Source of the DNA: Candidatus Dojkabacteria bacterium
GTDB lineage: Bacteria; Patescibacteriota; Dojkabacteria; SC72; JAFGCJ01
Direction of reading: 5' to 3'
Length of the DNA: 21,840 bases
NCBI GenBank assembly: GCA_028696915.1
Contig: JAQVGB010000007.1
Location: 1-21,840, forward strand
Shown here: positions 9,049 to 21,840 of the stretch, in pieces
Layout: the number at the start of each line of letters is the position of its first letter
How positions within the stretch are numbered: position 1 is the stretch's first letter
Position numbers and translations under genes: made by a program
Notes under the pieces: model-generated
Database searches by the model: none
What the model saw: the letters and a program-made list of their open reading frames with translations, nothing else
What the model was told of the DNA's origin: nothing

Positions 9049-10176
9049 TTATATCACCATTTCGCTGTCGTTGATGACCCGTACGACCGTTTTCTTCCGT
9101 TCCAGTTTGGTAACCGGCTGTTCATCTTCGGGCTTGGGAAGCCGGTAGTACGTTGATCGTCCCCCGTGATGTACTGAAACAAGCTTTTTCCGGACAAGTT
9201 CATTGAGGTCACGGTAGGCAGTCATGGTTGAAACACCCGTCATCCCCACATACTCGCGGCGGGAGATCCTGGGGTGATACTGGAGGTGCCGTACGAGCCT
9301 CTGTTGGCGTGGGTTGAGCACGAGCAGCTGTTCTCTTTGCAGGTGAACTTTCTTTTCTGCCGCTCGCACGACATCGTTTTTTAATGAAACCATATCGGAC
9401 GAAATTCCGTTGAGGTAGGTCTCGATCCATCCGGTCACATCCGCAGTTGTCCAGTCGATTGATGACAGCGCGTCAATAAATTGTTCTTTATGATTGAGGA
9501 AACTTCCAGCGACCGGGAAAAGGCCCTTGAGCGAGAGTCGCGAGCGCTCCATGAGCAGTTCCGTAGAAGCAAGCATGGTGATGAAATTGCCGGACATGAA
9601 CGGATACCACCGATACAACTCCGATATGACACAGGCACACTTGATTGCGGGGTGCACCTGATGCCGCTTTTCCCCGAACCAATGGAGCACATCCGTGAAG
9701 TACCGCTGAGGATCTATCGAAAGCCTCGGCAGTTCCCTGTCTTTCAGAAGAGGGTCCGCCGGATCGCTTACGGTGTCCATAATCGACCTGAACCGCCCGC
9801 TTTCCCACGATTCGACGATCGTGTTGAGAAGAAGCTTGTTTAAATGAAGAAGCAGTGATGCTGAGAGCGATAGGTACGGGTCATTGCTTGATGCATACAT
9901 GAAATCACTGGTGCTCCGGTAGTTTGCAAGAATGACTGATTTTGAACCGGGCAGTGGAATATCTCTTCCCGAGGCAAGGTTTGAGGCATCAGGCTGAGAG
10001 AGTGGAATATTCAGCTGTGTGGCAAGCGCTGAAATGTTGCTTGATGCCTGCTGGTGTAGAAGCGATTTTTGCACTTTCGCCGAAAGTGGCGTGCTTCGGA
10101 TATCGTGGATTGCAAGCTCGAGACGGATCAAGTGCGAAACGATTGTGTTCGTCAGAGAGAATGTTGGAACGTACAT
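9049..10176 (-). CDS. Fic/DOC-fold protein with degenerate catalytic motif and a C-terminal winged-HTH
   Basis: At the position of the Fic signature HPFxxGNGRxxR the protein reads YPFMSGNFITML (nt 9571-9606). The C-terminus LNPRQQRLVRHLQYHPRISRREYVGMTGVSTMTAYRDLNELVRKKLV resembles the wHTH found on long Fic proteins. Confidence 0.6.
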   Translation of the reverse strand: MYVPTFSLTNTIVSHLIRLELAIHDIRSTPLSAKVQKSLLHQQASSNISALATQLNIPLSQPDASNLASGRDIPLPGSKSVILANYRSTSDFMYASSNDPYLSLSASLLLHLNKLLLNTIVESWESGRFRSIMDTVSDPADPLLKDRELPRLSIDPQRYFTDVLHWFGEKRHQVHPAIKCACVISELYRWYPFMSGNFITMLASTELLMERSRLSLKGLFPVAGSFLNHKEQFIDALSSIDWTTADVTGWIETYLNGISSDMVSLKNDVVRAAEKKVHLQREQLLVLNPRQQRLVRHLQYHPRISRREYVGMTGVSTMTAYRDLNELVRKKLVSVHHGGRSTYYRLPKPEDEQPVTKLERKKTVVRVINDSEMVI

Positions 10177-10494: not shown

Positions 10495-10570
<76 letters not shown>

Positions 10571-11486: not shown

Positions 11487-11539
11487 TATGCCGCTAACCT
11501 CTAGTTGAGGCGATCATTAAAACATAATGAAGAATTTGT

Positions 11540-11613
11540 GGGGCGGTAGTTCAGTTGGCTAGAACATCGCACTGTCACTGCGAAGGTCGCGGGTTCGAGC
11601 CCCGTCCGCCCCG
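11540..11613 (+). tRNA. tRNA-Asp (anticodon GUC), CCA not encoded (followed by TAG)
   Basis: 74 nt cloverleaf. The acceptor is GGGGCGG/CCGCCCC with discriminator G, the D arm GTTC-AGTTGGCTA-GAAC, the anticodon arm TCGCA-CTGTCAC-TGCGA, and the T arm GCGGG-TTCGAGC-CCCGT. Confidence 0.92.
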
Positions 11614-11730
11614 TAGGCAATCAAAAATCGTCCGAAAGGGCGATTTTTTGTTGCCTCGCTGGAAGGACGAAGGGCGAGAAGCAAGGTCCCACGAAACGAA
11701 GTGTAGTGGGGAGCCCCGTCCGCCCCGCCA
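11612..11730 (+). repeat. Junction module alpha, copy 1 (119 nt), ending in the 13-mer GTCCGCCCCGCCA (11718-11730)
   Basis: 116/119 identical to 14821-14939. It begins right at the discriminator of tRNA-Asp. The last 20 nt, GAGCCCCGTCCGCCCCGCCA, repeat the tRNA T-loop/acceptor 3' strand and add CCA. Confidence 0.95.
11623..11649 (+). terminator. Intrinsic-terminator-like hairpin downstream of tRNA-Asp
   Basis: AAAAATCGTCC-GAAA-GGGCGATTTTT has an 11 bp stem with one G-U pair, a GNRA-type loop and a T tract. It is nested in an outer inverted repeat AGGCAA (11615-11620) / TTGCCT (11652-11657). Confidence 0.65.
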
Positions 11731-11893
11731 TTTTCAACATGTTCCAACAAGACCCGTCCACTATCTCTAGGAATCCCTTGGTTGCTTCGTAAAATCGCCC
11801 CTAAATTTAAGTATTTCAATTTCACATCCTGGTGGATGAAAATATCCATATTTTAACCAGTTTTTACTTCCCCACGGTTCGAAGATAGAATCC
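11731..11893 (+). repeat. Cassette left arm L, copy 1 (upstream of the ABC gene)
   Basis: Colinear with 13858-14024 in four blocks. The blocks are a 36-nt block TTTTCAACATGTTCCAACAAGACCCGTCCACTATCT (34/36), CCTGGTGGATGAAAA (15/15), CAGTTTTTA (9/9) and CGGTTCGAAGA (11/11). They sit at matching distances from the CCA (97/99 nt and 144/145 nt). Confidence 0.85.
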
Positions 11894-11936
11894 TTTTGTG
11901 ATATACTTTTCAAATAATTACAATAGATATAACGAC

Positions 11937-13715
11937 ATGCTTAAAGAAATAATAAAAGGATTAAAGTACGGACTTAATACACACAAATTCCTTATTACCT
12001 CGCAATGGATTCTTAACACCATTAACCAAACAACACCGCTATTTTTTGCAATCATCTGGGCAAAACTAATAGATACAGCAATAGATGGGATTCAGAATAA
12101 CAACCTCACCTTTTCCTTAATGATAGTTCCCTTCATCCTGTATGGCGTCATAGAAATAGCTAGATCTCTTACAGGGAAATTAGATGATGCATTACAAACA
12201 CTGGCCTATGACAAATTAGAGTTAAAAGTTCATACAGATGTAGTTAAGAAATATTCATCACTTGATATACAAAGCCTAGAAGATCCAGAAGTTAACAGAC
12301 TATTTCAAGTTATAAGGGAGTCATATGAATGGAGAATTAGACATTTAATATTTACATTCGGTAAAGCACTAAGGGCATTTGTAATACTTGGTATTGGTTC
12401 ATTTATACTTTTCAAAATCTCTCCTCTTGTTATGCTCATTATAATTATATCCTCTATACCATCCGTATTAGGAAAAATGAAGTTTGGCTCTATTGATTGG
12501 GGAATATGGCATGCAGATGCAGATAAGTTTAGAAAATTTAACCTAACTAAAGACTTTTTACTTAACAAAGATAATCTTCTGGAGGCAAATATAAACAATA
12601 TATCTCCACATCTCGTTGAAGTAATAAAAGAAATACTGAATTCATATCATCAGAAGAGAAAGCCAGTAATTAAAAAGCGTTTTTTTGTTCTAATTTTAAC
12701 AGACTTAATAGGAATAGTAGGTTCAATATATTCCGTATATCTACTGATTACTCTAGCTTTAACTGGCTCTATCTCAATTGGAAGTTTAATCTTAGGATCA
12801 TCTATCTTCCTTTCATTTTCTGGTGGACTAGGATCTTTCTTGTATGAAATTACAGAATTATATGATTCAGGATTATTCATGAGAGATTTCAACTCTTTTA
12901 TGAATCTTAAGCCTAAAATATCTAAAGGGAATATTCTGTTAGAAAAACTTGATACTCCTCCTACTATAGAGTTTAAGAACGTATCCTTTACATACCCCAA
13001 TACAGACAAAATTGTATTAAAGGATATAGACCTTGTTATTAAACCTGGTATGAAAGTAGCATTAGTAGGTGAAAATGGAGTAGGAAAAACAACCTTAATT
13101 AAACTACTCGCTCGATTCTATACACTGAACAATGGAATGATCGAAATTAATGGTCAAAATCTCGCAGATATTGATACAGAAAGCTGGGAACAGAACTTAG
13201 GTTTACTCACACAACATTTTAATACATACCCTGCATTTAGTGTTGAGGAGAATATATATTTTGGAGATGTATCCAAGGAGAGGAGAAGTAAGAGTATAGA
13301 AAGTGCTGCTGATAAAGCAAATGTTACAAGCTTTATTAACAAATATAAAAACAAATTTAAACAGATTCTTTCTATACAATTTAAGGATGGAATAGATCCA
13401 TCATGGGGACAATGGCAAAGATTAGGAATAGCTAGAACATTATATAGGGATGCACCCGTAGTAATATTTGATGAACCCACATCCTCTATAGATGCTCAAG
13501 CAGAGTATGAGATATTTGAAAACATTAATAGTTCTACTAAAGATAAAACCGTTATATATGTATCACATAGGTATTCTACAGTAAGGAATGCTGACTTAAT
13601 ATGCGTTTTAAAGGATGGAAGAATTGTTGAGTCAGGAAACCATCAAGATTTAATGAGTATTAATGGTGAGTATGCTAAGAACTTTAAATTACAAGCATCG
13701 GGGTATTCAGATTGA
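11937..13715 (+). CDS. ABC exporter, fused permease-ATPase (type I half-transporter) with an atypical signature motif
   Basis: The N-terminal ~330 aa carry about 6 hydrophobic segments. The NBD has Walker A GENGVGKTT, a Q-loop region, Walker B VVIFDEPTSSID and H-loop YVSHR. The signature reads PSWGQWQR instead of LSGGQRQR. ATG 11937 is preferred; the track start at GTG 11898 is possible. The gene is very AT-rich. Confidence 0.85.
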   Translation: MLKEIIKGLKYGLNTHKFLITSQWILNTINQTTPLFFAIIWAKLIDTAIDGIQNNNLTFSLMIVPFILYGVIEIARSLTGKLDDALQTLAYDKLELKVHTDVVKKYSSLDIQSLEDPEVNRLFQVIRESYEWRIRHLIFTFGKALRAFVILGIGSFILFKISPLVMLIIIISSIPSVLGKMKFGSIDWGIWHADADKFRKFNLTKDFLLNKDNLLEANINNISPHLVEVIKEILNSYHQKRKPVIKKRFFVLILTDLIGIVGSIYSVYLLITLALTGSISIGSLILGSSIFLSFSGGLGSFLYEITELYDSGLFMRDFNSFMNLKPKISKGNILLEKLDTPPTIEFKNVSFTYPNTDKIVLKDIDLVIKPGMKVALVGENGVGKTTLIKLLARFYTLNNGMIEINGQNLADIDTESWEQNLGLLTQHFNTYPAFSVEENIYFGDVSKERRSKSIESAADKANVTSFINKYKNKFKQILSIQFKDGIDPSWGQWQRLGIARTLYRDAPVVIFDEPTSSIDAQAEYEIFENINSSTKDKTVIYVSHRYSTVRNADLICVLKDGRIVESGNHQDLMSINGEYAKNFKLQASGYSD

Positions 13716-13759: not shown

Positions 13760-13781
13760 GGTCCAGACTCGTATGTCCCGT
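13760..13781 (+). repeat. Degenerate tRNA 3'-end-like cassette right end, copy 1
   Basis: GGTCCAGACTCGTATGTCCCGT matches GGTTCCAGACGTGTATGTCCCGT at 14801-14823. Both align loosely (about 13-15 of 22) to the tRNA-Asp T-loop/acceptor GGTTCGAGCCCCGTCCGCCCCG. Confidence 0.7.
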
Positions 13782-13857
13782 TGTCCACGAATGTAATGAG
13801 TGGTAACAACGGGCGATCCCGCAATCGCGAAGCGAGCTGCGGTGGTCCGCCCCGCCA
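13777..13857 (+). repeat. Junction module beta, copy 1: hairpin, 35-nt conserved body and 13-mer (13845-13857)
   Basis: The hairpin is CCCGTTGT-CCAC...GTGG-ta-ACAACGGG (13777-13813). AACAACGGGCGATCCCGCAATCGCGAAGCGAGCTG (13805-13839) is identical to 20847-20881. The module ends in GTCCGCCCCGCCA. Confidence 0.9.
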
Positions 13858-14024
13858 TTTTCAATATGTTCCAACAAGACCCGTGCACTATCTTTTAAAA
13901 CCCTTATGGGAATTGAGTTATTAAGACTCTAAAAAGTGAAAGTTTTAAAAGTAAGGCCTGGTGGATGAAAAAGATCAAAAAAAAGCAGTTTTTAAGAGCT
14001 CTCGGTTCGAAGAAAAACTAATCC
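13858..14024 (+). repeat. Cassette left arm L, copy 2 (here abutting the 3' end of the minus-strand S51 peptidase gene)
   Basis: See 11731-11893: the same four colinear blocks at the same spacing from the CCA. Confidence 0.85.
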
Positions 14025-14059
14025 TATATACACAAACAAAAAATCATTACGGATAAGTA

Positions 14060-14701
14060 TTACCTCAATTTTGTTTCACTTATAATAACTTCCCCATCTC
14101 TTAAAGGCTTATAAGGTATGCCTTCATGCTTAAAGTACTTTATCGCCTCATTAATCATTTCTGATTCAGGATGATCAGAGTCAAAATGTGGTGCTATTGA
14201 ATAATCTATTAAACCAATTCCCTCCCAAACAATCTCTTTTCCATAGACTTCGGTTACTTTCTCTGGTTCGTCAGCTAATTCAATACCCTTTAAAGAAGGT
14301 GCTAATACACATGCTCCTGCAGAAAAACCTGCGTAAAGGAATTCTGTTTTATCACTCCTGTTTTTATATTCAATTAAAATCTTGTCGAGACCACTTTCTG
14401 CCATTGCACTACGAAGTAAAAAAGCATTTCCACCAATAACCCATAAACCTCCAAATTCGTCCAATTTTGATCTTAATCCTTCCATATCCCCAAAGTAATC
14501 TCTTAGATCTAAGAGCTCCGGTTCAAATCCAAGATCTTTTAATCCATCAATTTGTTTCTGTTCAGAAGCCAATCTTCTTTCGGTGTCATTACTAAAATCT
14601 AGAGCATTAGCTATTAGTGCAATTCTTTTATTTGAAGAAGCTAACTGAGCCAATTTATTAGGATCATCTCCAAATTTGTATGAAGACAAATATAATTTCA
14701 T
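14060..14701 (-). CDS. Peptidase family S51 (dipeptidase E-like)
   Basis: VIGGNAFLL (compare GGGNTF), nucleophile elbow YAGFSAGACV (compare GWSAGA) and IAPHFDSD (compare NPHF). Length is 213 aa. A strong Shine-Dalgarno AGGAGA lies 6 nt before the ATG. Confidence 0.8.
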   Translation of the reverse strand: MKLYLSSYKFGDDPNKLAQLASSNKRIALIANALDFSNDTERRLASEQKQIDGLKDLGFEPELLDLRDYFGDMEGLRSKLDEFGGLWVIGGNAFLLRSAMAESGLDKILIEYKNRSDKTEFLYAGFSAGACVLAPSLKGIELADEPEKVTEVYGKEIVWEGIGLIDYSIAPHFDSDHPESEMINEAIKYFKHEGIPYKPLRDGEVIISETKLR

Positions 14702-14800: not shown

Positions 14801-14823
14801 GGTTCCAGACGTGTATGTCCCGT
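14801..14823 (+). repeat. Degenerate tRNA 3'-end-like cassette right end, copy 2
   Basis: GGTTCCAGACGTGTATGTCCCGT runs directly into alpha copy 2, exactly as the genuine tRNA-Asp 3' end runs into alpha copy 1. Confidence 0.7.
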
Positions 14824-14939
14824 AGGCAATCAAAAATCGTCCGAAAGGGCGATTTTTTGTTGCCTCGCTGGAAGGACGAAGGGCGAGAAGCACGGTCCCA
14901 CGAAACGAAGTGTAGTGGAAAGCCCCGTCCGCCCCGCCA
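14821..14939 (+). repeat. Junction module alpha, copy 2 (119 nt), ending in the 13-mer (14927-14939)
   Basis: 116/119 identical to 11612-11730. The three differences are A/C at 14893 and GG/AA at 14919-14920. Confidence 0.95.
14832..14858 (+). terminator. Second copy of the terminator-like hairpin
   Basis: Identical to 11623-11649 (AAAAATCGTCCGAAAGGGCGATTTTT plus T tract). Confidence 0.55.
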
Positions 14940-15233
14940 GACGGAACGGTGCTTATAGGTAAACAGTAAATAATGTCAGGACAATGAAAGTTGGCACCTC
15001 CTCAGTTCGAACCTCACACTATGGGCAAATAAGGCGTCCGGAACAGATTTCATAGGATAATCCATTTTCCTTATTATTAAAGCAAAAGTAGGGGTAATTA
15101 TGCGTTCGAACCTAACAATCTAAAAATATGAAAAAATGTAGGTTGCATGTGATAACCAAGAATATCAAGAGAACCTGGATGTATTTGCTAAAACTTTGAA
15201 CATAATTGCGGTGAATATTGCGAAATTGAGCCC

Positions 15234-16433
15234 TTAGATGGGCTCTGCAACCGTTTCTTCCAGTACACGTTCGAGATCTTTTGTCTGAGCCTCTATTGAT
15301 TTACTTGCCCAGTCTCGTTCCTGATACATTTTGAGCCCCATCCATGGTTTACCAAGTTCGTCAAGGCAGAGTGCAAGTAGTGCCAGTCGTTCTTCTCGAG
15401 GTGTAGGGGTACTTAATCTTCCTCCCCCACGAATTGCCTTCATTTGATATGTATACGCTGTGTAATCAATATGTAATTGCATAAGAAACTCAAACGTTTT
15501 TTCGTCAATAATTTTATATTCCATCGCTCTTCTCCATAACGCGACAGAGATAGCTTCCTGTTCCATTTGATGACTAGTGACATTATAAAGACCCTGAATT
15601 TCACGAGTTTTATCTAAAAACTCTGAATCTGGTTCAATATCAAATGGATATAACGGTATCCCTTTTTGATCAATACCGTACAATACGTTTCTATGTTGTT
15701 TTTCCAGTTGCGCTATTGTTTCTTTGTATTGGGTTTCTCTTTTTTGAAAATCAGTATCTGACTCACCTAGCTTTCTTACTGGTTCTTTTGGGCGATTGAC
15801 ATCAAGATATCGGTCCCAGAGTTTCCCTGCATCGTGGGTGCCAGCCCAAACAATAAAAGCGCGGCGCTCTTCTTCGGAAATATGCAAAGATTCAAACAAG
15901 TGCCGAGAAAACCGGAATATATTACGACGCACTGCCAGCATGTCCAGTTCTGATTGGGTTAATTGTTCCCATCCGCTTTGATCCAGAATTCTTGAAATAG
16001 TCTCTGATAAGTCGTCCACTGTCGCAACGTATGCCTCACTGTGTCCTTCAATGGGTTGAAAGTAGTGGTATGCTGATGGCGGTATTTCATTTCCAGAAAG
16101 AGCTTGAAAAACAGAAAGAAGTGCTCGCATATGGTCTGTCACATCGTATCCATGAAATGGACACACCTGATCAACCAGTAATCCTCCATCTGGCCTTTTT
16201 CTAAGAGAAACCGTAGATGTAACTAATGCACGACGATCGTCTGTTGCTTCAGATCCAACAAGATCAGGATTAGTTTCAATTAGATTAGTAGCATCTACAG
16301 CAAGTCTCGACCAGACAGTTGGTTGATCAAGCTGCCCCATAAGATACCCAATTCCATCACATATCGACTGAGTGCGCGCTTCAATCGCTTGGTTCATAAT
16401 TTCATTACCTTCACCATCTGGAGCATTTGCCAT
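15234..16433 (-). CDS. HD-domain metal-dependent phosphohydrolase-like protein (399 aa from ATG 16433)
   Basis: FSRHLFESLHISEEERRAFIVWAGTHDAGK (nt 15822-15902) fits the HD-domain pattern H...(~20 aa)...LHDxGK. The rest of the protein is unassignable by eye. The internal Met (MANAPDG) is preferred as start because it removes the overlap with the divergent kinase gene. Confidence 0.5.
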   Translation of the reverse strand: MANAPDGEGNEIMNQAIEARTQSICDGIGYLMGQLDQPTVWSRLAVDATNLIETNPDLVGSEATDDRRALVTSTVSLRKRPDGGLLVDQVCPFHGYDVTDHMRALLSVFQALSGNEIPPSAYHYFQPIEGHSEAYVATVDDLSETISRILDQSGWEQLTQSELDMLAVRRNIFRFSRHLFESLHISEEERRAFIVWAGTHDAGKLWDRYLDVNRPKEPVRKLGESDTDFQKRETQYKETIAQLEKQHRNVLYGIDQKGIPLYPFDIEPDSEFLDKTREIQGLYNVTSHQMEQEAISVALWRRAMEYKIIDEKTFEFLMQLHIDYTAYTYQMKAIRGGGRLSTPTPREERLALLALCLDELGKPWMGLKMYQERDWASKSIEAQTKDLERVLEETVAEPI

Positions 16434-16446
16434 ATGAGACAATTTC

Positions 16447-16474
16447 TTGTAAAAACTGTGATACCTGCTATTAT
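16447..16474 (+). promoter_or_regulatory. Candidate promoter in the 74-nt divergent intergenic region, oriented toward the kinase gene
   Basis: TTGTAA (16447-16452), 16 nt spacer, TATTAT (16469-16474). Confidence 0.3.
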
Positions 16475-16507
16475 AGTAATCACATAAGTAAAAAACAAGC
16501 ATGTATT

Positions 16508-17458
16508 ATGAATAATCTTTCCTTTGGTGATGTCGTCCAGAAGCTCCAGGAGGATTACGCGGATCTTCAGAAATACGACCTAACGGTACAAAAGCAATTT
16601 GTTTCAAAAACAGGACGTAAGTACAATACTTTTCTTGTTGATGCACCTGATTCCCCATATGGTATATTTGTAGCCAAAAGCTTTTGGCATGAGAACCAGA
16701 ACCTTGATGATGAAGTTCGCATTATGAATTTTCTCTCTGATAAAGAGGTATTTGTGCCAAAGCTGTTGTTTCCATACAAAGCAGGGAATACGTTTATTGT
16801 GATGGAATATATCAAAGGAACTGATGCTGCGGAATTGCTTCAAAATCCAGAACATGCACTAAATGCATTTAGAAGTATTGGTACATCCTTGAGTAAAGTA
16901 TATGAAGTGTCTGTCCCGGCTTTTAACAAATTCTGGGAAAACGATCCAACAGTATGGTCAGAGTATGTTCAGGAAAAGTTTGATGAACGGTTAACAAAAG
17001 CCATTGATAAAGATCTTTGGGATCAAATTCGGTCGATTTATCAAAAAGGTACAGAAGTTATAGCGGAAGATGCAAAGTCTGGATCAGTTTTGATACACAG
17101 AGATATTTATGCTGACAACTTTATTATTGAAGAGTCGACCGGGCGGGCAATTTTAATTGACTTCGCTATGGCTCGCGGAGGCAGGCCCTTTTATGATCTT
17201 GCCAAGTTTTACATCATCGATCTAGCGAGACATTCTGAAGGTCAAAATGCTTTTCTGGAGGGACTGAATATTGCTGAAAGAAGTGAAGCAAACTTTTATA
17301 TGCTCCGATCCTATATCCTCATTGAGCTCCTTGGCATGATTAACTTTTATATGAGTATTAATCAAACTGAGCCCTTAAAACACGCACAAACATGTCTGAG
17401 AGAATTAGTAACAGAAAAGGGAAGTTTCCATGAGTTAGTGAAAGCATATGTAACGTAA
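16508..17458 (+). CDS. APH/choline-kinase-family small-molecule kinase (aminoglycoside phosphotransferase fold)
   Basis: Catalytic loop LIHRDIYADNFII (HxDxxxxN), metal-binding ILIDFAMA (the DFG equivalent), and an N-lobe with VAKSF containing a Lys. ATG 16508 (MNNLSFGD) is preferred over the track's TTG at 16427. Confidence 0.75.
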   Translation: MNNLSFGDVVQKLQEDYADLQKYDLTVQKQFVSKTGRKYNTFLVDAPDSPYGIFVAKSFWHENQNLDDEVRIMNFLSDKEVFVPKLLFPYKAGNTFIVMEYIKGTDAAELLQNPEHALNAFRSIGTSLSKVYEVSVPAFNKFWENDPTVWSEYVQEKFDERLTKAIDKDLWDQIRSIYQKGTEVIAEDAKSGSVLIHRDIYADNFIIEESTGRAILIDFAMARGGRPFYDLAKFYIIDLARHSEGQNAFLEGLNIAERSEANFYMLRSYILIELLGMINFYMSINQTEPLKHAQTCLRELVTEKGSFHELVKAYVT

Positions 17459-17566
17459 ACTAACCTTGTCTTATAAAGGATATTTATATCCGGACCTCAA
17501 ACGACAACTCCGGTACCTGCACTTTAATTCTCGCATCCCGCATCACCTCCATTAGAGTTTTGTTCT

Positions 17567-17579
17567 GTCCGCCCCGCCA
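17567..17579 (+). repeat. Solo copy of the tRNA-Asp 3'-terminus 13-mer GTCCGCCCCGCCA
   Basis: Exact 13/13 match in the same orientation, located in the 165-nt gap between the kinase gene and ORF374. It has no alpha or beta body upstream. Confidence 0.9.
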
Positions 17580-17623
17580 GCCTCTTTTCGGTCATCTGTT
17601 AAAAGCCAACAAACATTGATATA

Positions 17624-18748
17624 TTGATAGAGTTAAATTCGGCTTTGCAGTTGATGTCTGGAGAATCACCAGTGCATGATGATGTACTAGCCCCCGCTGG
17701 TGTTGCGGATGTAGCAGATCCGTTACCCCAAGATCCCGATTTTCAGCGTCTTCATGCACAGTATCTAGAGTATCTACAAAACGAGCCTGTTACCAAGGTA
17801 AAGCTTCCGCTATACCACGGAACTGGCTCATATGCACTGAGACGGATCTTGCATGATGGATTTGTCCCACGCTCTTCCAGTGCGTCATTGACGGGAGATA
17901 GTGCTTCAAGCCCCTGGACACCGGAAGAGGGATCCGCGTTCACGTCATTTGCACCGGGTACTTCTGAAGGAGCCGTCTTTGCACGGGGGTATGCATACCA
18001 ATCAAGTAGAGAGTGGGGATTAAGCTACACGGCAGATGAAGCTCTAGGTGCTTCGTTTCTTGAGCGAGTGCAAACCAAATTCTTTCCAGATATGAATGCG
18101 GCAGTGGAAGCTGAGCACAAGCGTGTTATTGGCCTAGGTAACAATGATCCTGAAGATGAAGTTCGTGAGGCTATTAAAATGGAGATGGACATTCAGAGGG
18201 AGCGGATGCAAACCCCTGGAGCTTTCGTATTCAGTCCCGATTCTGCTCGAGAGATGATAGGTGAATTACAGAGGCTTCAAAATGGAGAGATTGAAGATAC
18301 TGTTGCTGCAGAGAGACTGTTAAGGGCAAACAACGTCCTCTGGCGACGAGGGGCTAGCGTTGTTAGACAGACCTTGCAAACGCTATCTGATCCGCAGAGT
18401 TGGCTTACAAAACGAATAGAGGAACTTAAGGCTTCATATGCCCAGATGATTATAGCGTATGAGAATTTGTCAGATGATGAACGAAATGAGCTGGAACACC
18501 AATTTCCCTGCATGGTCTTGGTAGAAGGTGATGGTATGAAGCTCGGGAATAAGGCAACGGCCTTTGTCCCCGAAGTTCAGGCGCTAGAAAGAACCGAACC
18601 GCAGAGGGTAAGAGAGATTTCGGTGCCAGAGTCAAAAGTGGAAACGGTACAGAAGTGGATCGAGGCTGAAGGACTAAAAGGTGTTATAGTTACCCCTCTG
18701 GAGTTTTCAGAAGTTAAGGATGTTCTTGATTCTGTCGAAAAGGAATAG
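17624..18748 (+). CDS. Hypothetical protein with a PARP/ADP-ribosyltransferase-like N-terminal NAD-binding motif (tentative)
   Basis: LPLYHGTGSYALRRILHDGFVP (nt 17804-17869) resembles the ART/PARP/Tpt1 motif hhHG(S/T)x7-8ILxxG(F/L). A possible second-strand motif is EGAVFARGYAYQSS (compare GxGxYFA..S.S). The central region is helical and charged. The start is TTG 17624 or ATG 17654. Confidence 0.35.
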   Translation: MIELNSALQLMSGESPVHDDVLAPAGVADVADPLPQDPDFQRLHAQYLEYLQNEPVTKVKLPLYHGTGSYALRRILHDGFVPRSSSASLTGDSASSPWTPEEGSAFTSFAPGTSEGAVFARGYAYQSSREWGLSYTADEALGASFLERVQTKFFPDMNAAVEAEHKRVIGLGNNDPEDEVREAIKMEMDIQRERMQTPGAFVFSPDSAREMIGELQRLQNGEIEDTVAAERLLRANNVLWRRGASVVRQTLQTLSDPQSWLTKRIEELKASYAQMIIAYENLSDDERNELEHQFPCMVLVEGDGMKLGNKATAFVPEVQALERTEPQRVREISVPESKVETVQKWIEAEGLKGVIVTPLEFSEVKDVLDSVEKE

Positions 18749-18804
18749 AGGTCGATGAAGGTTTGAGTAGCCATAGATCTCCAAACTCGTCCCATGCCTT
18801 CCGC

Positions 18805-18822
18805 CAGCAGCGCTTTCTGCTG
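18805..18822 (+). other. Perfect 6-bp hairpin downstream of ORF374
   Basis: CAGCAG-cgcttt-CTGCTG has no T tract. It immediately follows a degenerate 13-mer-like string, GTCCCATGCCTTCCGCCAG (18789-18807). Confidence 0.35.
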
Positions 18823-18848
18823 ACTCCTCCATACGCTATACTTGCTTC

Positions 18849-19295
18849 ATGTATCAGATTCCGGAGGACAAGGGATTCCTCATAGCAGTAAAAGCACTAA
18901 TAATCAACTCGTCAGGTGAAGTTCTTCTCCTTAAAGTGAATAGTGGCCTGCGTGATTCAGAGAGATGGGATCTACCCGGCGGTTTAATGGAATATGACGA
19001 TACGGTTGAGAGCAGATTACAGAAAGAAGTGATTGAGGAAACCGGCATTAAAATCAAAGATCCGAAGCTAATTGCTGTTTCTGAAACGATATTTGAAGAT
19101 TTCGTTCTTGACGAAAATAACGTAAAAGACATGAAAGTTGTAGTTATTGGTTTTGAATTGCATATAGGCGCAACAAAGGAGACTATCAGATTATCAGAGG
19201 AACATGCAGGTTATGCTTGGTATAGAATGGAAGATTTGAATACCATTGAGCTCTCCAAACCTTCCAAGGCAATCATCACAAAGATTCCTAAGTAA
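18849..19295 (+). CDS. Nudix hydrolase
   Basis: Nudix box G-LMEYD-D-TVESRLQ-KEVIEETGI (nt 18978-19049) fits Gx5Ex7REUxEExGU with conservative E-to-D and R-to-K changes. Length is 148 aa. TATACT lies 6 nt before the ATG. Confidence 0.8.
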   Translation: MYQIPEDKGFLIAVKALIINSSGEVLLLKVNSGLRDSERWDLPGGLMEYDDTVESRLQKEVIEETGIKIKDPKLIAVSETIFEDFVLDENNVKDMKVVVIGFELHIGATKETIRLSEEHAGYAWYRMEDLNTIELSKPSKAIITKIPK

Positions 19296-19301
19296 CATCG
19301 T

Positions 19302-19329
19302 CTCGGTTCGATACTGTGCCACGCGGCCA
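19302..19329 (+). other. Fragment resembling a different tRNA 3' end (T-loop to CCA)
   Basis: CTCGG-TTCGATA-CTGTG-CCACGCG-G-CCA has exactly the T-loop-to-CCA spacing of a tRNA. It is followed by GTAGGCAA, the same octamer that follows the tRNA-Asp 3' end. There is no 5' half, and the T stem pairs at only 4 of 5 positions. Confidence 0.5.
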
Positions 19330-19331
19330 GT

Positions 19332-19359
19332 AGGCAAAAGCACGCAGCTTTTGTATCCT
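19332..19359 (+). other. Hairpin analogous to the alpha-module hairpin
   Basis: AGG-CAAAAGC-acgca-GCTTTTG-tat-CCT then CG. It has the same flanks (GTAGGCAA...TTTTGT..CCTCG) as 11613-11659 but a different stem and loop sequence. Confidence 0.5.
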
Positions 19360-19381
19360 CGAGCAATGTGAAGTCAATATC

Positions 19382-20710
19382 TCATAGGTTAACCGTCACG
19401 TCATCCGGTTCAATATCTCCACACATTGCCAAATACCAGGAATTGCTTCCAAAATACTTTTGCGCAGCCCGTTGTGTCGCCTCTGGAGTACAACGTAATA
19501 TAGCCTCTGAGTATGCTTTAATTCCGAAGGGGCCTCCTACACCTCTTTCCCAGTCTGAGTATTGTTCAACCCAACTCCTGGAATCTTGAAGGCGCATTCT
19601 TAATGATTTAATCTTCCTCGTCTGCCCGAATACTAACTCTTCTTGCGAAAGGCCACTGGTAACGACGCGTCTGATTTCTCCGGCAAGAACATCAAGCACC
19701 TCCTGCACATTTTGCCTTGAAGTCGAAGTTTTAATAAGAAATCGCCCTGAGTCGCTATTTCTTTGAGCACCAGCACTTGCCTCATAGGTCAGTCCTCTTT
19801 CATATCTTAGTAAGCGTTTTAACGAAGATGCCCTTCCTCCTCCGAGCGATTCTGCAATCATTTCTAACGCCAGGTTGTCTGCCTCGCTACTAGTTTGAAA
19901 TCTAAATCCGAAAAGAATATGAACTTGTTCAAGACCAGGATATCTTTCCACAAGAATCTGCCCTCCGATAGGTAGAGGCAATTCTTCGGCGGCTTTCAGA
20001 GGAACGCTTGCTGGGACCAATAAACTCTGCTCTGCGTGATCTTTTAGATCGTGAACCTGTGTTCCACCGCAGGCTACAAATAACAGTCGCCCAGATGTTA
20101 CGACTTCTTTGTAGAAACGAATCAAGTCATCTCTTGAAATTGACCTAATTGATTCCGGGGTTCCAAGAATCGATCTTCCAAGATCTGTCCCTCCAAAGAA
20201 AAGCCGTGGATACAACTCCATGAGCATTTTTTCTGGACTTGATACTTTTGCTCCGAGTTCTCGTAAAATTGCCCCTCTTTCCATCTCCACTGTTCGAGGA
20301 TCAAACAGTGGATCGAGTAACATTTCGTGCATCAAGTCGACACATACTCCAAGATCGTCAGGATCCGCTACCGTGGAATTGATACTCAACCGTTCCCACC
20401 CGGTTGTTGCGCCAATTTCTCCTCCATAGCGTTCAATGTATGCAGCTAGTCTGTCTTTAGTAGGAAAACGAGGTGTTCCCGCGAGGAGCATGTGCTCAAG
20501 AAAATGTGCTGTTCCTTCTTGTCCCGGTGGATCAAAACGTGCCCCACCAATGGAAACAGCGCGAAGATGAATAGGTGCCCGAGGTCGCTCCAAAACAACC
20601 AGTTTTGAACCATTTGATAGGAACGTTTCCTCCCGTCTCGTTCCCAGGTCTTCAGCAGATAAAGAATTGTGGGTCGGATCGGTATCAACCTCATTGGGTT
20701 TGTCAATCAT
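19382..20710 (-). CDS. M16-family (pitrilysin/insulinase-like) zinc metallopeptidase
   Basis: Inverted zincin motif GTAHFLEHMLL (HxxEH) near the N-terminus, a downstream Glu region (ERGAILRE), and a two-domain length of 442 aa. Confidence 0.85.
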   Translation of the reverse strand: MIDKPNEVDTDPTHNSLSAEDLGTRREETFLSNGSKLVVLERPRAPIHLRAVSIGGARFDPPGQEGTAHFLEHMLLAGTPRFPTKDRLAAYIERYGGEIGATTGWERLSINSTVADPDDLGVCVDLMHEMLLDPLFDPRTVEMERGAILRELGAKVSSPEKMLMELYPRLFFGGTDLGRSILGTPESIRSISRDDLIRFYKEVVTSGRLLFVACGGTQVHDLKDHAEQSLLVPASVPLKAAEELPLPIGGQILVERYPGLEQVHILFGFRFQTSSEADNLALEMIAESLGGGRASSLKRLLRYERGLTYEASAGAQRNSDSGRFLIKTSTSRQNVQEVLDVLAGEIRRVVTSGLSQEELVFGQTRKIKSLRMRLQDSRSWVEQYSDWERGVGGPFGIKAYSEAILRCTPEATQRAAQKYFGSNSWYLAMCGDIEPDDVTVNL

Positions 20711-20717
20711 AAGAATA

Positions 20718-20746
20718 AGTATATGTTAGGTCCTGATTTTTGTCAT
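20718..20746 (-). promoter_or_regulatory. Candidate promoter abutting the M16 start codon
   Basis: On the minus strand: ATGACA (20741-20746), 17 nt spacer, TATACT (20718-20723), then 7 nt to the ATG at 20710. No Shine-Dalgarno. Confidence 0.4.
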
Positions 20747-20818
20747 CCGGCACAGAGAGTTGTACCACTCTCAATCTGAACTTAAATGAAATCACCATAG
20801 CACCAAACTCTTCCCACC

Positions 20819-20898
20819 CCCGTTGTCTGTGGCCAAAGCGATCAGCAACAACGGGCGATCCCGCAATCGCGAAGCGAGCTGAGCGGTCCGCCCCGCCA
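20819..20898 (+). repeat. Junction module beta, copy 2: hairpin, 35-nt body and 13-mer (20886-20898); distal boundary of the island
   Basis: The hairpin is CCCGTTGT-CTG...CAG-ca-ACAACGGG (20819-20855). Its outer 8 bp are the same as copy 1, and its inner pairs differ but still pair. The body 20847-20881 is 35/35 identical to 13805-13839. The module ends in GTCCGCCCCGCCA. Confidence 0.9.
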
Positions 20899-21033
20899 CA
20901 TTTGAATTCATAAATGAAACTATTCAACATCCCATTGCACAATGATGAAGGTAATCTAGTAAGTTGAGATCCCAAATCCATGCCCCGCCTCCCGGCTACA
21001 TGATCTCTCCGCTTTCCTGTACAATCATGCCCT

Positions 21034-21840
21034 ATGCCGTCATTCTGGACAAAGTTACCGCGTCCGTTCTTTGCACTCGCTCCCATGCGGGGCATCACCA
21101 ACGGTGTGTTTCGTACGATCATATCTCAATACGCTCCTCCCGATGTGATTTTCACGGAATTTGCGAATGTTGAGACACTATTCTCTCCCGGCAAGGACGC
21201 AGAAATGGTCAAATTGACACTATCTTCTGCTACATGCCCTGTGGTAGCACAGCTGTGGGGATCGAATCCTGAAAACTTCATGAAATCCGCGAGAATTCTC
21301 TCCCGGCAGGGGTTTAGCGGTATTGATATCAATATGGGCTGCTCAATTAACAAAATTCTGAAGAAAGACTCCTGCGGCGCACTGATTAAAAATCCCAGTC
21401 TCGCACGTGAAATTATCATTGCAACAAAGGAGGGAGCCGCGCCGCTACCGGTCAGTGTGAAAACACGGCTCGGACATGACGCTTTTTCTCCGCAGTGGAT
21501 CGAATGGCTTCTTCAATCGGATATCGATGCGCTGACGATACACGGAAGGACGGTCATTCAGGGCTTTAGGGGAAGTGCAGACTGGACGAGCATCGGCAAG
21601 GCGGTGGAAATCAAAAAACAGCTGGGGGTGTCGACCTGTATTATCGGAAATGGCGATGTGAGGTCCCGAGCACAGGGTGTTGAGCGTGCCCGTGACTATG
21701 AGGTGGACGGCATTATGATCGGCCGTGCGGAGTTGTCAGACCTCTTTGTCTTTTCTTCAAAATCCCGGAACGGTCATGCGCGGGATACACGTCTGCGTAT
21801 CCTCACCGACCACATTGACCGTGTTCTCAAGGAAAAAAGG
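21034..21840 (+). CDS. dus: tRNA-dihydrouridine synthase (N-terminal 269 codons; 3' end outside the window)
   Basis: The gene is not in the ORF track because it runs off the window. Frame 1 is open from 21004 with an ATG at 21034. The translation MPSFWTKLPRPFFALAPMRGITNGVFRTII...VAQLWGSNPENF...GIDINMGCS...VSVKTRLG...LTIHGRT...IIGNGDV...DGIMIGRA shows the Dus TIM-barrel motifs, including catalytic-Cys-region NMGC and FMN-binding K.R/HGR. Confidence 0.85.
   Translation, partial: MPSFWTKLPRPFFALAPMRGITNGVFRTIISQYAPPDVIFTEFANVETLFSPGKDAEMVKLTLSSATCPVVAQLWGSNPENFMKSARILSRQGFSGIDINMGCSINKILKKDSCGALIKNPSLAREIIIATKEGAAPLPVSVKTRLGHDAFSPQWIEWLLQSDIDALTIHGRTVIQGFRGSADWTSIGKAVEIKKQLGVSTCIIGNGDVRSRAQGVERARDYEVDGIMIGRAELSDLFVFSSKSRNGHARDTRLRILTDHIDRVLKEKR

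Follow-up and report, generated by a model that had tools for sequence, protein, structure and literature searches.

The window analysed here is a stretch of 21,840 nucleotides (nt), nearly the entire 21.8-kb contig of a 'Candidatus Dojkabacteria' metagenome-assembled genome (MAG) from the Patescibacteria, also called the candidate phyla radiation (CPR). Its subject is a tRNA-Asp gene and a set of repeats of that gene's 3' end farther downstream. The gene, tRNA-Asp(gtc), lies on the forward strand at 11540-11613 (Rfam RF00005, 69.9 bits; the ARAGORN call is 11539-11614). By direct reading its 3' terminus is ...GAGCCCCGTCCGCCCCG, with the discriminator G at 11613. The last ten nucleotides, GTCCGCCCCG, occupy 11604-11613 and are followed by TAG at 11614-11616, so CCA is not encoded. 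After the terminus the sequence continues TAGGCAATC.

The same 10-mer followed by CCA gives the 13-mer GTCCGCCCCGCCA, which occurs exactly five times in the window, on the forward strand only, at 11718, 13845, 14927, 17567 and 20886. Tolerating one mismatch yields no extra copies there. The chance expectation is 0.00, and none of 100 shuffles contained any match. Within the window the 10-mer is found at these five repeats and at the tRNA-Asp end, and nowhere on the reverse strand. Identity with the tRNA-Asp end extends over 17 nt at 11711-11727, 16 nt at 14921-14936 and 10 nt at the remaining three copies.

A first-pass annotation, made from the sequence alone, had already noticed that the gene ends in the 10-mer and TAG while the five copies end in CCA. 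It had also stated that CCA is missing from four of the five tRNA genes in the window (Asp, Glu, Leu and Thr), and that the copies cannot be simple duplications of the present gene end and its flank. All of this stands, the first point by direct reading and by the empty shuffles. Its broader view, that the copies record the integration history of an island, also holds: the GC content is about 50% in the host sequence upstream to tRNA-Asp, as against 32-47% across 11.6-20.9 kb. A search of the whole window against Rfam at E<=1 returned the five tRNAs and nothing else.

The segments between the repeats are mosaics of shared modules, here called A, L and R. Module A is 114 nt long. Its first copy (11614-11727, forward strand) begins directly after the tRNA and folds at -50.6 kcal/mol (z = -3.8), with a GC content of 0.575 against 0.32-0.38 in the adjoining cassette. 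An 11-bp terminator hairpin with a GNRA loop and a T-run starts 9 nt past the tRNA-Asp end, and the 3' strand of a second hairpin is GAGCCCCGTCCGCCCCG, a secondary site designated t. The second copy of A (14823-14936, forward strand; fold z = -4.2) has 97% identity with the first. Module L consists of two hairpins ending in GGTCCGCCCCG. Its first copy is at 13781-13854 (forward strand; GC 0.616, fold z = -3.2), and its second, at 20823-20895 (forward strand), has 35 nt identical to the first. In the predicted folds of both A and L, the 10-mer forms the 3' strand of a GC-rich hairpin. Module R, about 169 nt long, is present at 11731-11898 (nhmmer model positions 1-169, E = 1.8e-31) and at 13858-14026 (nhmmer match 13858-14017, E = 2.3e-46), both on the forward strand. 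Modules A and L have a GC content of 56-66%, R and the two cassettes that it opens, B and C, 32-38%, and the host 50%.

The five 13-mers are the joints of this mosaic, all on the forward strand. Junction 1 (11718-11730) joins the end of A, GTCCGCCCCG, to the CCA that opens the arm of cassette B. At junction 2 (13845-13857) the end of L, again GTCCGCCCCG, meets the CCA of the arm of cassette C. Junction 3 (14927-14939) consists of the end of A and the CCA of segment D; junction 4 (17567-17579) is an exact 13-mer between segments D and E; and junction 5 (20886-20898) is the end of L with CCA, followed by CATTTGAATTC... Segment D (14940-17576) terminates in GTCCGCCCCG and segment E (17580-20822) in ...CCCACCCCCG; permissive nhmmer searches found no R in either. 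Cassettes B and C have an end of another kind, termed the (c)-type. In B it is CCAGACTCGTATGTCCCG (13763-13780, forward strand), followed by T instead of CCA. In C it is CCAGACGTGTATGTCCCG (14805-14822, forward strand), joined straight to TAGGCAATC of module A and not to CCA and R. The motif CCAGAC(TC/GT)GTATGTCCCG, which resembles the tRNA-Asp end at 15 of 22 positions, stands immediately before the first copy of L and the second copy of A.

The same cassette system is widespread in other Patescibacteria. A metagenome scan with the pattern GCCATTTT-N11-13-ACAAGACCCGT returned 49 stretches, about 38 of them genuine and mostly from anaerobic digesters and activated sludge. In the genuine stretches R invariably comes after ...CCGCCA, and upstream of this core there is a complete tRNA-Asp, a complete tRNA-Ser or a conserved tRNA-end-like cassette end. 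The commonest such end, GGTTCCAGACGTGTATGTCCCG, is also the motif of the window. Arrays in about 45 further Patescibacteria contigs, situated downstream of tRNA-Asp or tRNA-Ser, have cassettes that meet at the 6-nt core CCG|CCA (the bar marks the joint), usually followed by the ~169-nt R; about 85 such junctions were seen. The R profile finds up to five same-strand copies per 5-6 kb. A cassette is 0.8-3 kb long: it opens with R, carries between one and three genes in either orientation, and closes with a tRNA-like end. The cargo includes hydrolases, sortase, HD and NUDIX proteins, radical-SAM enzymes, surface proteins and methylases. Cassette C itself recurs, at about 80% nucleotide identity, in a metagenome contig (L168). 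The dozens of contigs with arrays come from digesters, sludge and groundwater.

Searches with the tRNA itself gave a similar picture. The 22-nt 3' end of tRNA-Asp has 124 matches in species-representative genomes, 105 of which are followed by CCA. The closest tRNA match is in a 'Saccharibacteria' MAG with the syntenic order tRNA-Gly-DUF4013-tRNA-Asp, in which tRNA-Asp carries CCA and is followed by a relative of R. The whole tRNA-Asp had no exact match in species-representative genomes, and a degenerate tRNA pattern had none in metagenomes. The neighbouring DUF4013 gene has no homologues besides itself, and the contigs matching exactly are Logan fragments of about 1 kb. Viral contigs returned no matches to the L motif or to the 13-mer joined to the start of R. 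A 16-mer from R gave 42 matches there, of which one is genuine: an IMG/VR contig (L204, IMGVR_UViG_3300023207_001384) has a junction of a tRNA-Asp-like end with R at 1340-1565 of a 2.5-kb stretch, which may be a free attP or an integrated copy.

A structured RNA (a bridge RNA, an attC-like element or another non-coding RNA) was considered for R and rejected, as a consensus fold is absent on both strands. For 41 diverse copies, RNAalifold gave 0.0 and -0.25 kcal/mol, no better than column shuffles, and Rfam returned no match. R is read as the DNA arm of an element with a predicted outward promoter.

Evidence for the position of the breakpoint is provided by observing the same sequences next to different partners. 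When one cassette is found in different arrays, it has 6-7 nt (CCGCCA) in common with its left neighbour and nothing more. Likewise, identical left contexts change partner directly after CCA. For instance, the cassette with the S51 peptidase (cassette C) ends ...GTATGTCCCG|CCATTTTCAAC, the latter being R, in L168, and ...GTATGTCCCG|TAGGCAATC in the window. TAGGCAATC is the resident tRNA-Asp's own trailer, and the pairwise alignment of the two loci parts exactly after CCCG. Across loci, (c)-type ends are followed by CCA in 40 of 45 cases and by 'T...' in the other five, always right after CCCG. The crossover is therefore placed inside the core and 5' of CCA, because CCCG can be followed either by CCA and R or by T... 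The crossover dinucleotide is probably the CC before the discriminator G, since CG would be palindromic. Two other positions, in the T-loop of the tRNA and in the AACATGTT dyad within R, were rejected because identical cassettes share CCGCCA alone with their left neighbours. Elements that use large serine recombinases are expected to recombine in this way, at a very short shared core and without long identity between the partners.

The presence of CCA follows the presence of R. All 15 tRNA genes that abut R encode CCA, compared with 4 of 14 other tRNA genes in the same loci (Fisher p = 5e-5). Four additional tRNA-Ser genes adjacent to R also have CCA, tRNA-Arg in the same loci does not, and the tRNA-Asp of L168 has neither CCA nor R after it. 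These patterns indicate that CCA is supplied by the arm of the incoming element and the 10-mer by the host. Of three explanations offered in the first-pass annotation, the one in which the CCA came from outside, with cassettes from donors, comes closest. It is roughly right: CCA is the first bases of the element arm in the CCG|CCA core, and not a copy of a donor tRNA gene. A practical consequence for annotation is that a CCA encoded on a tRNA gene can be the scar of an integrated element and not a property of the gene. In the window, tRNA-Gly(ccc) (10495-10570, reverse strand) is the sole tRNA gene that encodes CCA; given the association of CCA with elements, this could be the mark of an old integration.

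Syntenic relatives were found by using the signal peptidase gene as a handle. Three loci (L230, L231 and L232) keep the order of the window, tRNA-Glu/Leu/Thr/Gly-DUF4013-tRNA-Asp. In the first two, tRNA-Asp ends in ...GTCCGCCCCG without CCA. The trailer that follows begins TTGTCTACG (extended, TTGTCTACGAG) and continues ...AACAACGGGCAACCCCGCA...GGCGGTCCGCCCCG|TTTTTTT, the T-run flank being TTTTTTTAAAT; it folds as a pair of hairpins ahead of the T-run (z = -4.0). Neither R nor cassettes come after tRNA-Asp. The copy of the tRNA end that closes the trailer is native in these loci, and CCA does not follow it. The trailer is homologous to module L, and the similarity stops right after CCCCG; the second copy of L in the window aligns with the trailer of L230. 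Because of this homology with sequence directly after tRNA-Asp, module L appears to be the captured tRNA-Asp trailer of another lineage of Dojkabacteria. Module A would be the window genome's own trailer.

The third locus shows the opposite state. Its tRNA-Asp differs from that of the window by one base and carries CCA, and the open reading frame (ORF) of a large serine recombinase runs straight into it. Thus the same gene can be CCA-less with its own trailer, as in L230 and L231, or CCA-bearing with an abutting element, as in L232. The recombinase ORF of L232 (1-972; GCA_054920395.1, JBUDQU010000002.1) has no stop before the tRNA-Asp-CCA junction, and its final ~14 codons are antisense to the 3' end of tRNA-Asp, which means that integration alters the C-terminus of the recombinase. 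The ends of A, L and D were also considered as decayed whole copies of tRNA-Asp. This was rejected, as A resembles the tRNA body only marginally (p = 0.014 for the first copy and 0.07) and L and D show no significant similarity to it.

The same loci bear on the alternative that the ancestral tRNA-Asp encoded CCA and abutted R, and that module A entered afterwards, as a small non-coding cassette, between the discriminator G and the CCA. The first-pass annotation had a similar proposal, in which the ancestral host gene encoded CCA and the latest integrant supplied the present end. There the distal copy at 20886 was the original end; in the alternative considered here it is the proximal copy at 11718. 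Such an insertion would account for the 17-nt direct repeat GAGCCCCGTCCGCCCCG that flanks A and for the position of both copies of A exactly between ...CCCG and CCA, a position that L shares. It would also fit the CCA on the near-identical tRNA-Asp of L232 and the marginal tRNA likeness of the 3' half of A. Against it, the homologue of L in L230 and L231 directly follows a CCA-less tRNA-Asp and leads into a T-run with no R or cassette, and the GC content of A and L is host-like. Module A opens with a textbook terminator 9 nt past the tRNA, CCA is missing from three of the window's four other tRNA genes, and a 114-nt circle would be too small for a plausible standalone recombination substrate. 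This course of events is unlikely. The earlier version is not favoured either, since L230 and L231 are CCA-less with a native trailer, most other tRNA genes have no CCA and a 57% GC terminator module follows the gene. The copy at 20886 is an unlikely original end, because it closes a captured trailer L and then reads CCA like the other arms. The suggestion that CATTTGAATTC is the native downstream flank is not supported: this sequence has no match in the syntenic relatives and is probably the arm of a further element.

The cassette system co-occurs with a conserved family of large serine recombinases. Proteins with the domains Resolvase, Recombinase and Zn_ribbon (Zn_ribbon_recom) are present in several arrays and related elements: they were detected in L144, L165, L152, L216, L218, L222, L226-L229 and L232, and in none of the window ORFs. 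They belong to a family of about 435 amino acids (aa) with more than 8000 proteins at E<=1e-30, whose sources, so far as they are named, are mostly Patescibacteria or Dojkabacteria. All seven contexts sampled, and L144, L165 and L152 as well, have the recombinase gene 0.2-9.6 kb downstream of a tRNA(Asp/Ser)-CCGCCA|R-like junction and facing the tRNA. The gene is thus physically linked to the attachment (att) site in relatives, and in L232 its ORF crosses the junction. From this co-occurrence we infer that the catalyst is most likely this Patescibacteria-wide family of large serine recombinases. The link rests on other genomes, because the window has no recombinase gene and its contig ends 942 nt past the last junction.

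Several Patescibacteria elements (L216, L218, L222 and L226-L229) share, in the region about 3.5 kb upstream of each recombinase gene, a conserved module of four genes: a ParB_N+N6_N4 methylase, an ORF of ~134 aa, a protein like the large subunit of terminase, and the serine recombinase. Beside this module there is often cargo for restriction-modification or a helicase. The module may represent a satellite-like or packaging-competent element. At another locus (L131, 7733-9589), the 3' end of a tRNA-Val gene that encodes CCA directly adjoins the oppositely oriented gene of a distinct 602-aa large serine recombinase. The arrangement of tRNA-CCA and recombinase may therefore extend to further recombinase families and tRNAs.

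Tandem islands of the classical kind would require a different enzyme. In that case a tyrosine integrase would have used an attP with a 13-bp block from a donor tRNA-Asp that encodes CCA, and the repeats would be displaced 3' fragments of the tRNA. Among the mechanisms known for tRNA-linked islands it is the most common (Islander, PMC4383910). It would fit the direct repeats of 10-17 nt of the tRNA end that flank every segment, and the CCA after 105 of the 124 genome matches to the 22-nt tRNA-Asp end. It would not fit the joints of the B and C families, which share 6 nt only and whose left side is not identical to a tRNA. Moreover, ...CCCG|TAGG and ...CCCG|TTGT are impossible products of a crossover in a block that includes CCA. 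Phage_integrase is absent from the window ORFs and from the 25 commonest families of 138 array ORFs, and the recombinases associated with the junctions are serine recombinases. An origin by tyrosine integrase is quite improbable.

Copies of RNA are another conceivable source of a CCA that the gene does not encode. The first-pass annotation had suggested that the copies derive from mature, CCA-tailed tRNA, and a related possibility is reverse transcription of the tRNA-like 3' ends of cassette transcripts. The capture of a tRNA by the Mauriceville retroplasmid of Neurospora is a parallel for such retro-copies. Besides the CCA, the hairpin that holds the 10-mer in A and L has a free ...CGCCA tail and is loosely like an acceptor minihelix. 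Nearly everything else speaks against it. The scanned window ORFs include no reverse transcriptase, cassette genes lie on both strands, and the copies contain 10-17 nt of the tRNA and no whole tRNAs, with only the slight upstream similarity of A already described. The joints are sharp DNA joints at a 6-nt core that co-occur with a serine recombinase, CCA stands in this core after non-tRNA sequences as well (among the ~85 junctions), the native trailer copy in L230 has no CCA, and R has no conserved RNA fold. Reverse transcription is thus the least credible source of the copies. The 13-mers are best understood as hybrid att junctions and not as tRNA copies, so the CCA paradox would have a fairly ordinary answer for which RNA intermediates are not needed.

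The reading preferred here, to which a probability of roughly 0.7 is given, is that each of the five copies of GTCCGCCCCGCCA is a hybrid attachment-site junction in a tandem array of integrated cassettes, in which the CCA is from the element, the 10-mer is of host type, and a serine recombinase mobilises the cassettes. The short core used for recombination would correspond to the 3' end of the tRNA: the last CC of the acceptor stem, the discriminator G and CCA. The left ten nucleotides, GTCCGCCCCG, would come from the tRNA-Asp end or from the second copy of it that closes the hairpin trailer downstream. The CCA would be the first three bases of the incoming arm, often followed by the ~169-nt R, and each CCA-first arm would convert a host 10-mer into a 13-mer. 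The resident tRNA-Asp is the left half of the primary attachment site. It would have retained its own CCA-less end and its terminator trailer A, with the array attached at the secondary site that closes the trailer. Short cassettes would be passengers without a recombinase, mobilised in trans by larger elements of the same att type.

In this scheme the array can be written T|a-A-t|r-B-c|l-L-t|r-C-c|a-A-t|d-D-t|e-E-x|l-L-t|h. Here T is the tRNA end, t is a copy of the trailer-end 10-mer and '|' is a joint after ...CCCG. The ends of B and C are written c and that of E is x; modules A and L and segments D and E open with the bases written a, l, d and e; r is CCA with R after it, and h is the flank past the last junction. 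The order of events that we infer begins with T|a-A-t, the resident gene with its own trailer, in which T| and t| would both be usable attachment sites. A cassette could enter at T| and later excise via t|, taking the trailer with it, much as in specialised transduction; this would give the combinations B+L, C+A and E+L. A composite circle [r-B-c|l-L-t|r-C-c|a-A-t|] entering at the resident t| would then produce the observed duplication of A around B-L-C. A circle closing B+L or C+A would read, for example, ...GGTCCGCCCCG|CCATTTTCAA. The three single-nucleotide polymorphisms (SNPs) between the two copies of A would fit separate donor and recipient strains, and a contig from a sister sample carries the other variant of A next to the tRNA. 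In the window's genome, more of the array may follow past position 21840.

The sister-sample contig (L001, from Logan SRR10812146) holds the same locus, equivalent to 11684-11758 of the window. Its module A carries the three SNPs typical of the window's second copy, and its R begins TATTCCAACGGTTGCTAC, compared with TTTTCAACATGTTCCAAC in the window, the dyad symmetry being kept in both. Exactly at the junction, this contig is a mosaic of strains or else a chimera produced by assembly.

Several points weigh against the reading of the repeats as hybrid junctions of a serine recombinase. A recombinase gene of any kind is absent from the 21.8-kb window. The Pfam results on the 138 array ORFs cover the 25 commonest families, outside which a rare tyrosine integrase could lie. 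The 13 identical nucleotides at the five junctions exceed both the 6-nt core seen elsewhere and the repeats typical of large serine recombinases. Segments D and E have no R and no homologues in the retrieved arrays, so that the shared 13-mer is all that would place them in the cassette system. Finally, this reading gives no reason for native trailers to end in a copy of the last 10-17 nt of the tRNA. If that copy were the relic of an earlier integration, 'native' would be a relative term.

Among known systems, the closest in action would be staphylococcal cassette chromosome (SCC) elements and tycheposons. SCC elements (SCCmec and relatives, with CcrAB or CcrC, in staphylococci and enterococci) were compared partly on the basis of PMC6222049 and PMC10581047. 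Like the arrays, they insert site-specifically at the 3' end of one housekeeping gene and form tandem composites with short direct repeats between the elements. Cassettes without a recombinase lie next to others that bear one, and the enzymes are large serine recombinases with Resolvase, Recombinase and Zn-ribbon domains. Unlike SCC, whose target is rlmH, the target here is the end of a tRNA-Asp or tRNA-Ser gene with the core CCG|CCA. Many cassettes here are as short as 0.8-3 kb and open with the 169-nt R, the recombinase is grouped with ParB-methylase and terminase-like genes in one module, and the hosts are Patescibacteria, in which the system is known from sequence alone.

Tycheposons of Prochlorococcus (bioRxiv 10.1101/2020.12.28.424599) also integrate at tRNA genes. 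Later arrivals push older elements outward, partial tRNA repeats run through the island, the cargo is adaptive or defensive, and some have phage-packaging genes. Of 937 tycheposons, 910 have tyrosine recombinases together with replication modules, and a minority have large serine recombinases (bioRxiv 10.1101/2020.12.28.424599). The arrays differ in their serine recombinase, in a repeat that amounts to a core of 6-13 nt where tycheposons have a longer partial tRNA, and in the conserved R arm. The integrase and replication module that define tycheposons are both missing from the window, and no replication module was seen beside the recombinase in relatives, which carry ParB-methylase and terminase-like genes.

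Integrons (IntI, attI, attC) have short, mostly single-gene cassettes at a fixed platform that are shuffled between arrays, non-coding mini-cassettes, and a repeated element of ~100-200 nt between genes. This likeness to the arrays would be superficial. No IntI was found here, the repeated element has no conserved hairpin, both strands carry genes, a tRNA end serves as the platform, and R has a promoter-like site of its own. Classical tRNA islands and prophages of the Islander/TIGER class resemble the arrays in inserting at the 3' part of a tRNA gene that stays intact, in the tRNA-end repeat that bounds them and in their atypical composition. Those elements use tyrosine integrases, crossovers in the anticodon loop or T-loop and identity blocks of tens of nucleotides, whereas the core here comprises the final 3 nt of the tRNA together with CCA, with a CCA from the element and not from the gene. 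A displaced fragment identical to the gene from the crossover to its end, as expected of islands of the Islander type, is not seen: the repeats carry the CCA that the gene lacks, and the ends of B and C are tRNA-like at 15 of 22 positions. Judged by the features that define each class, the cassette system appears to be neither an integron nor a tyrosine-integrase island nor a tycheposon. It does seem to have the sequence-level features of large-serine-recombinase elements, apart from a recombinase gene in the window.

More generally, Patescibacteria might have an undescribed integron-like or SCC-like platform, in which a serine recombinase shuffles R-tagged cassettes at the CCG|CCA of tRNA-Asp and tRNA-Ser, the arm supplies the CCA, and trailers act as movable secondary landing pads. 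The chances for and against this generalisation seem about even. A literature search, of incomplete coverage, on serine recombinases, tRNA, cassettes and integrative elements in CPR/Patescibacteria found no description of it. If real, the platform would be a major route of gene flux in tiny genomes with few known mobile elements, and would help to explain how CPR bacteria exchange surface, defence and metabolic genes. It would also yield a defined pair of att site and recombinase for genetic tools in a nearly intractable group.

The repeats of the window enclose, as cargo, an ABC exporter, an S51 peptidase, an APH-type kinase, a NUDIX hydrolase and an M16 peptidase, together with three unknown ORFs. 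The scan of the window ORFs revealed neither an integrase nor a transposase nor a reverse transcriptase. The exporter of cassette B (11898-13715, forward strand) has membrane and ATPase domains (Pfam ABC_tran, 1.8e-29, and ABC_membrane), and its NCBIfam matches are to MsbA-like and type I secretion ABC proteins. A promoter scan found a predicted sigma-70-like site, TTTACT-17-TAGAAT (11863-11891, forward strand), at the 3' end of R and directly upstream of the exporter gene. Few stretches of R are as well conserved across arrays as the TAGAAT/GGTTCGAAG region. Cassette C carries the Peptidase_S51 family protein (14060-14701, reverse strand; Pfam 4.5e-18). Segment D carries an unknown 422-aa ORF (15234-16502, reverse strand) and the APH-family kinase (16427-17458, forward strand; Pfam APH 3.1e-18), and segment E an unknown 374-aa ORF and, by Pfam, the NUDIX hydrolase and the M16 peptidase.

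The tail of the window (20899-21840) has no similarity to the recombinase C-terminus or to a variant of R. A 139-aa ORF (20703-21122, reverse strand) spans the last junction (20898/20899), running from the distal flank into module L, and has no family matches. It may be spurious, or it may be an element ORF altered by integration as in L232.

Upstream of the array, between tRNA-Leu and tRNA-Thr, lies a Fic/DeoR-like gene (9049-10176, reverse strand). It is homologous to cassette genes that follow R in five arrays (L142, L144, L149, L151 and L170). At the same position the syntenic relatives have a gene of 392-399 aa with a DIP2311-like_C domain, with a faint match to HTH_DeoR in L232.

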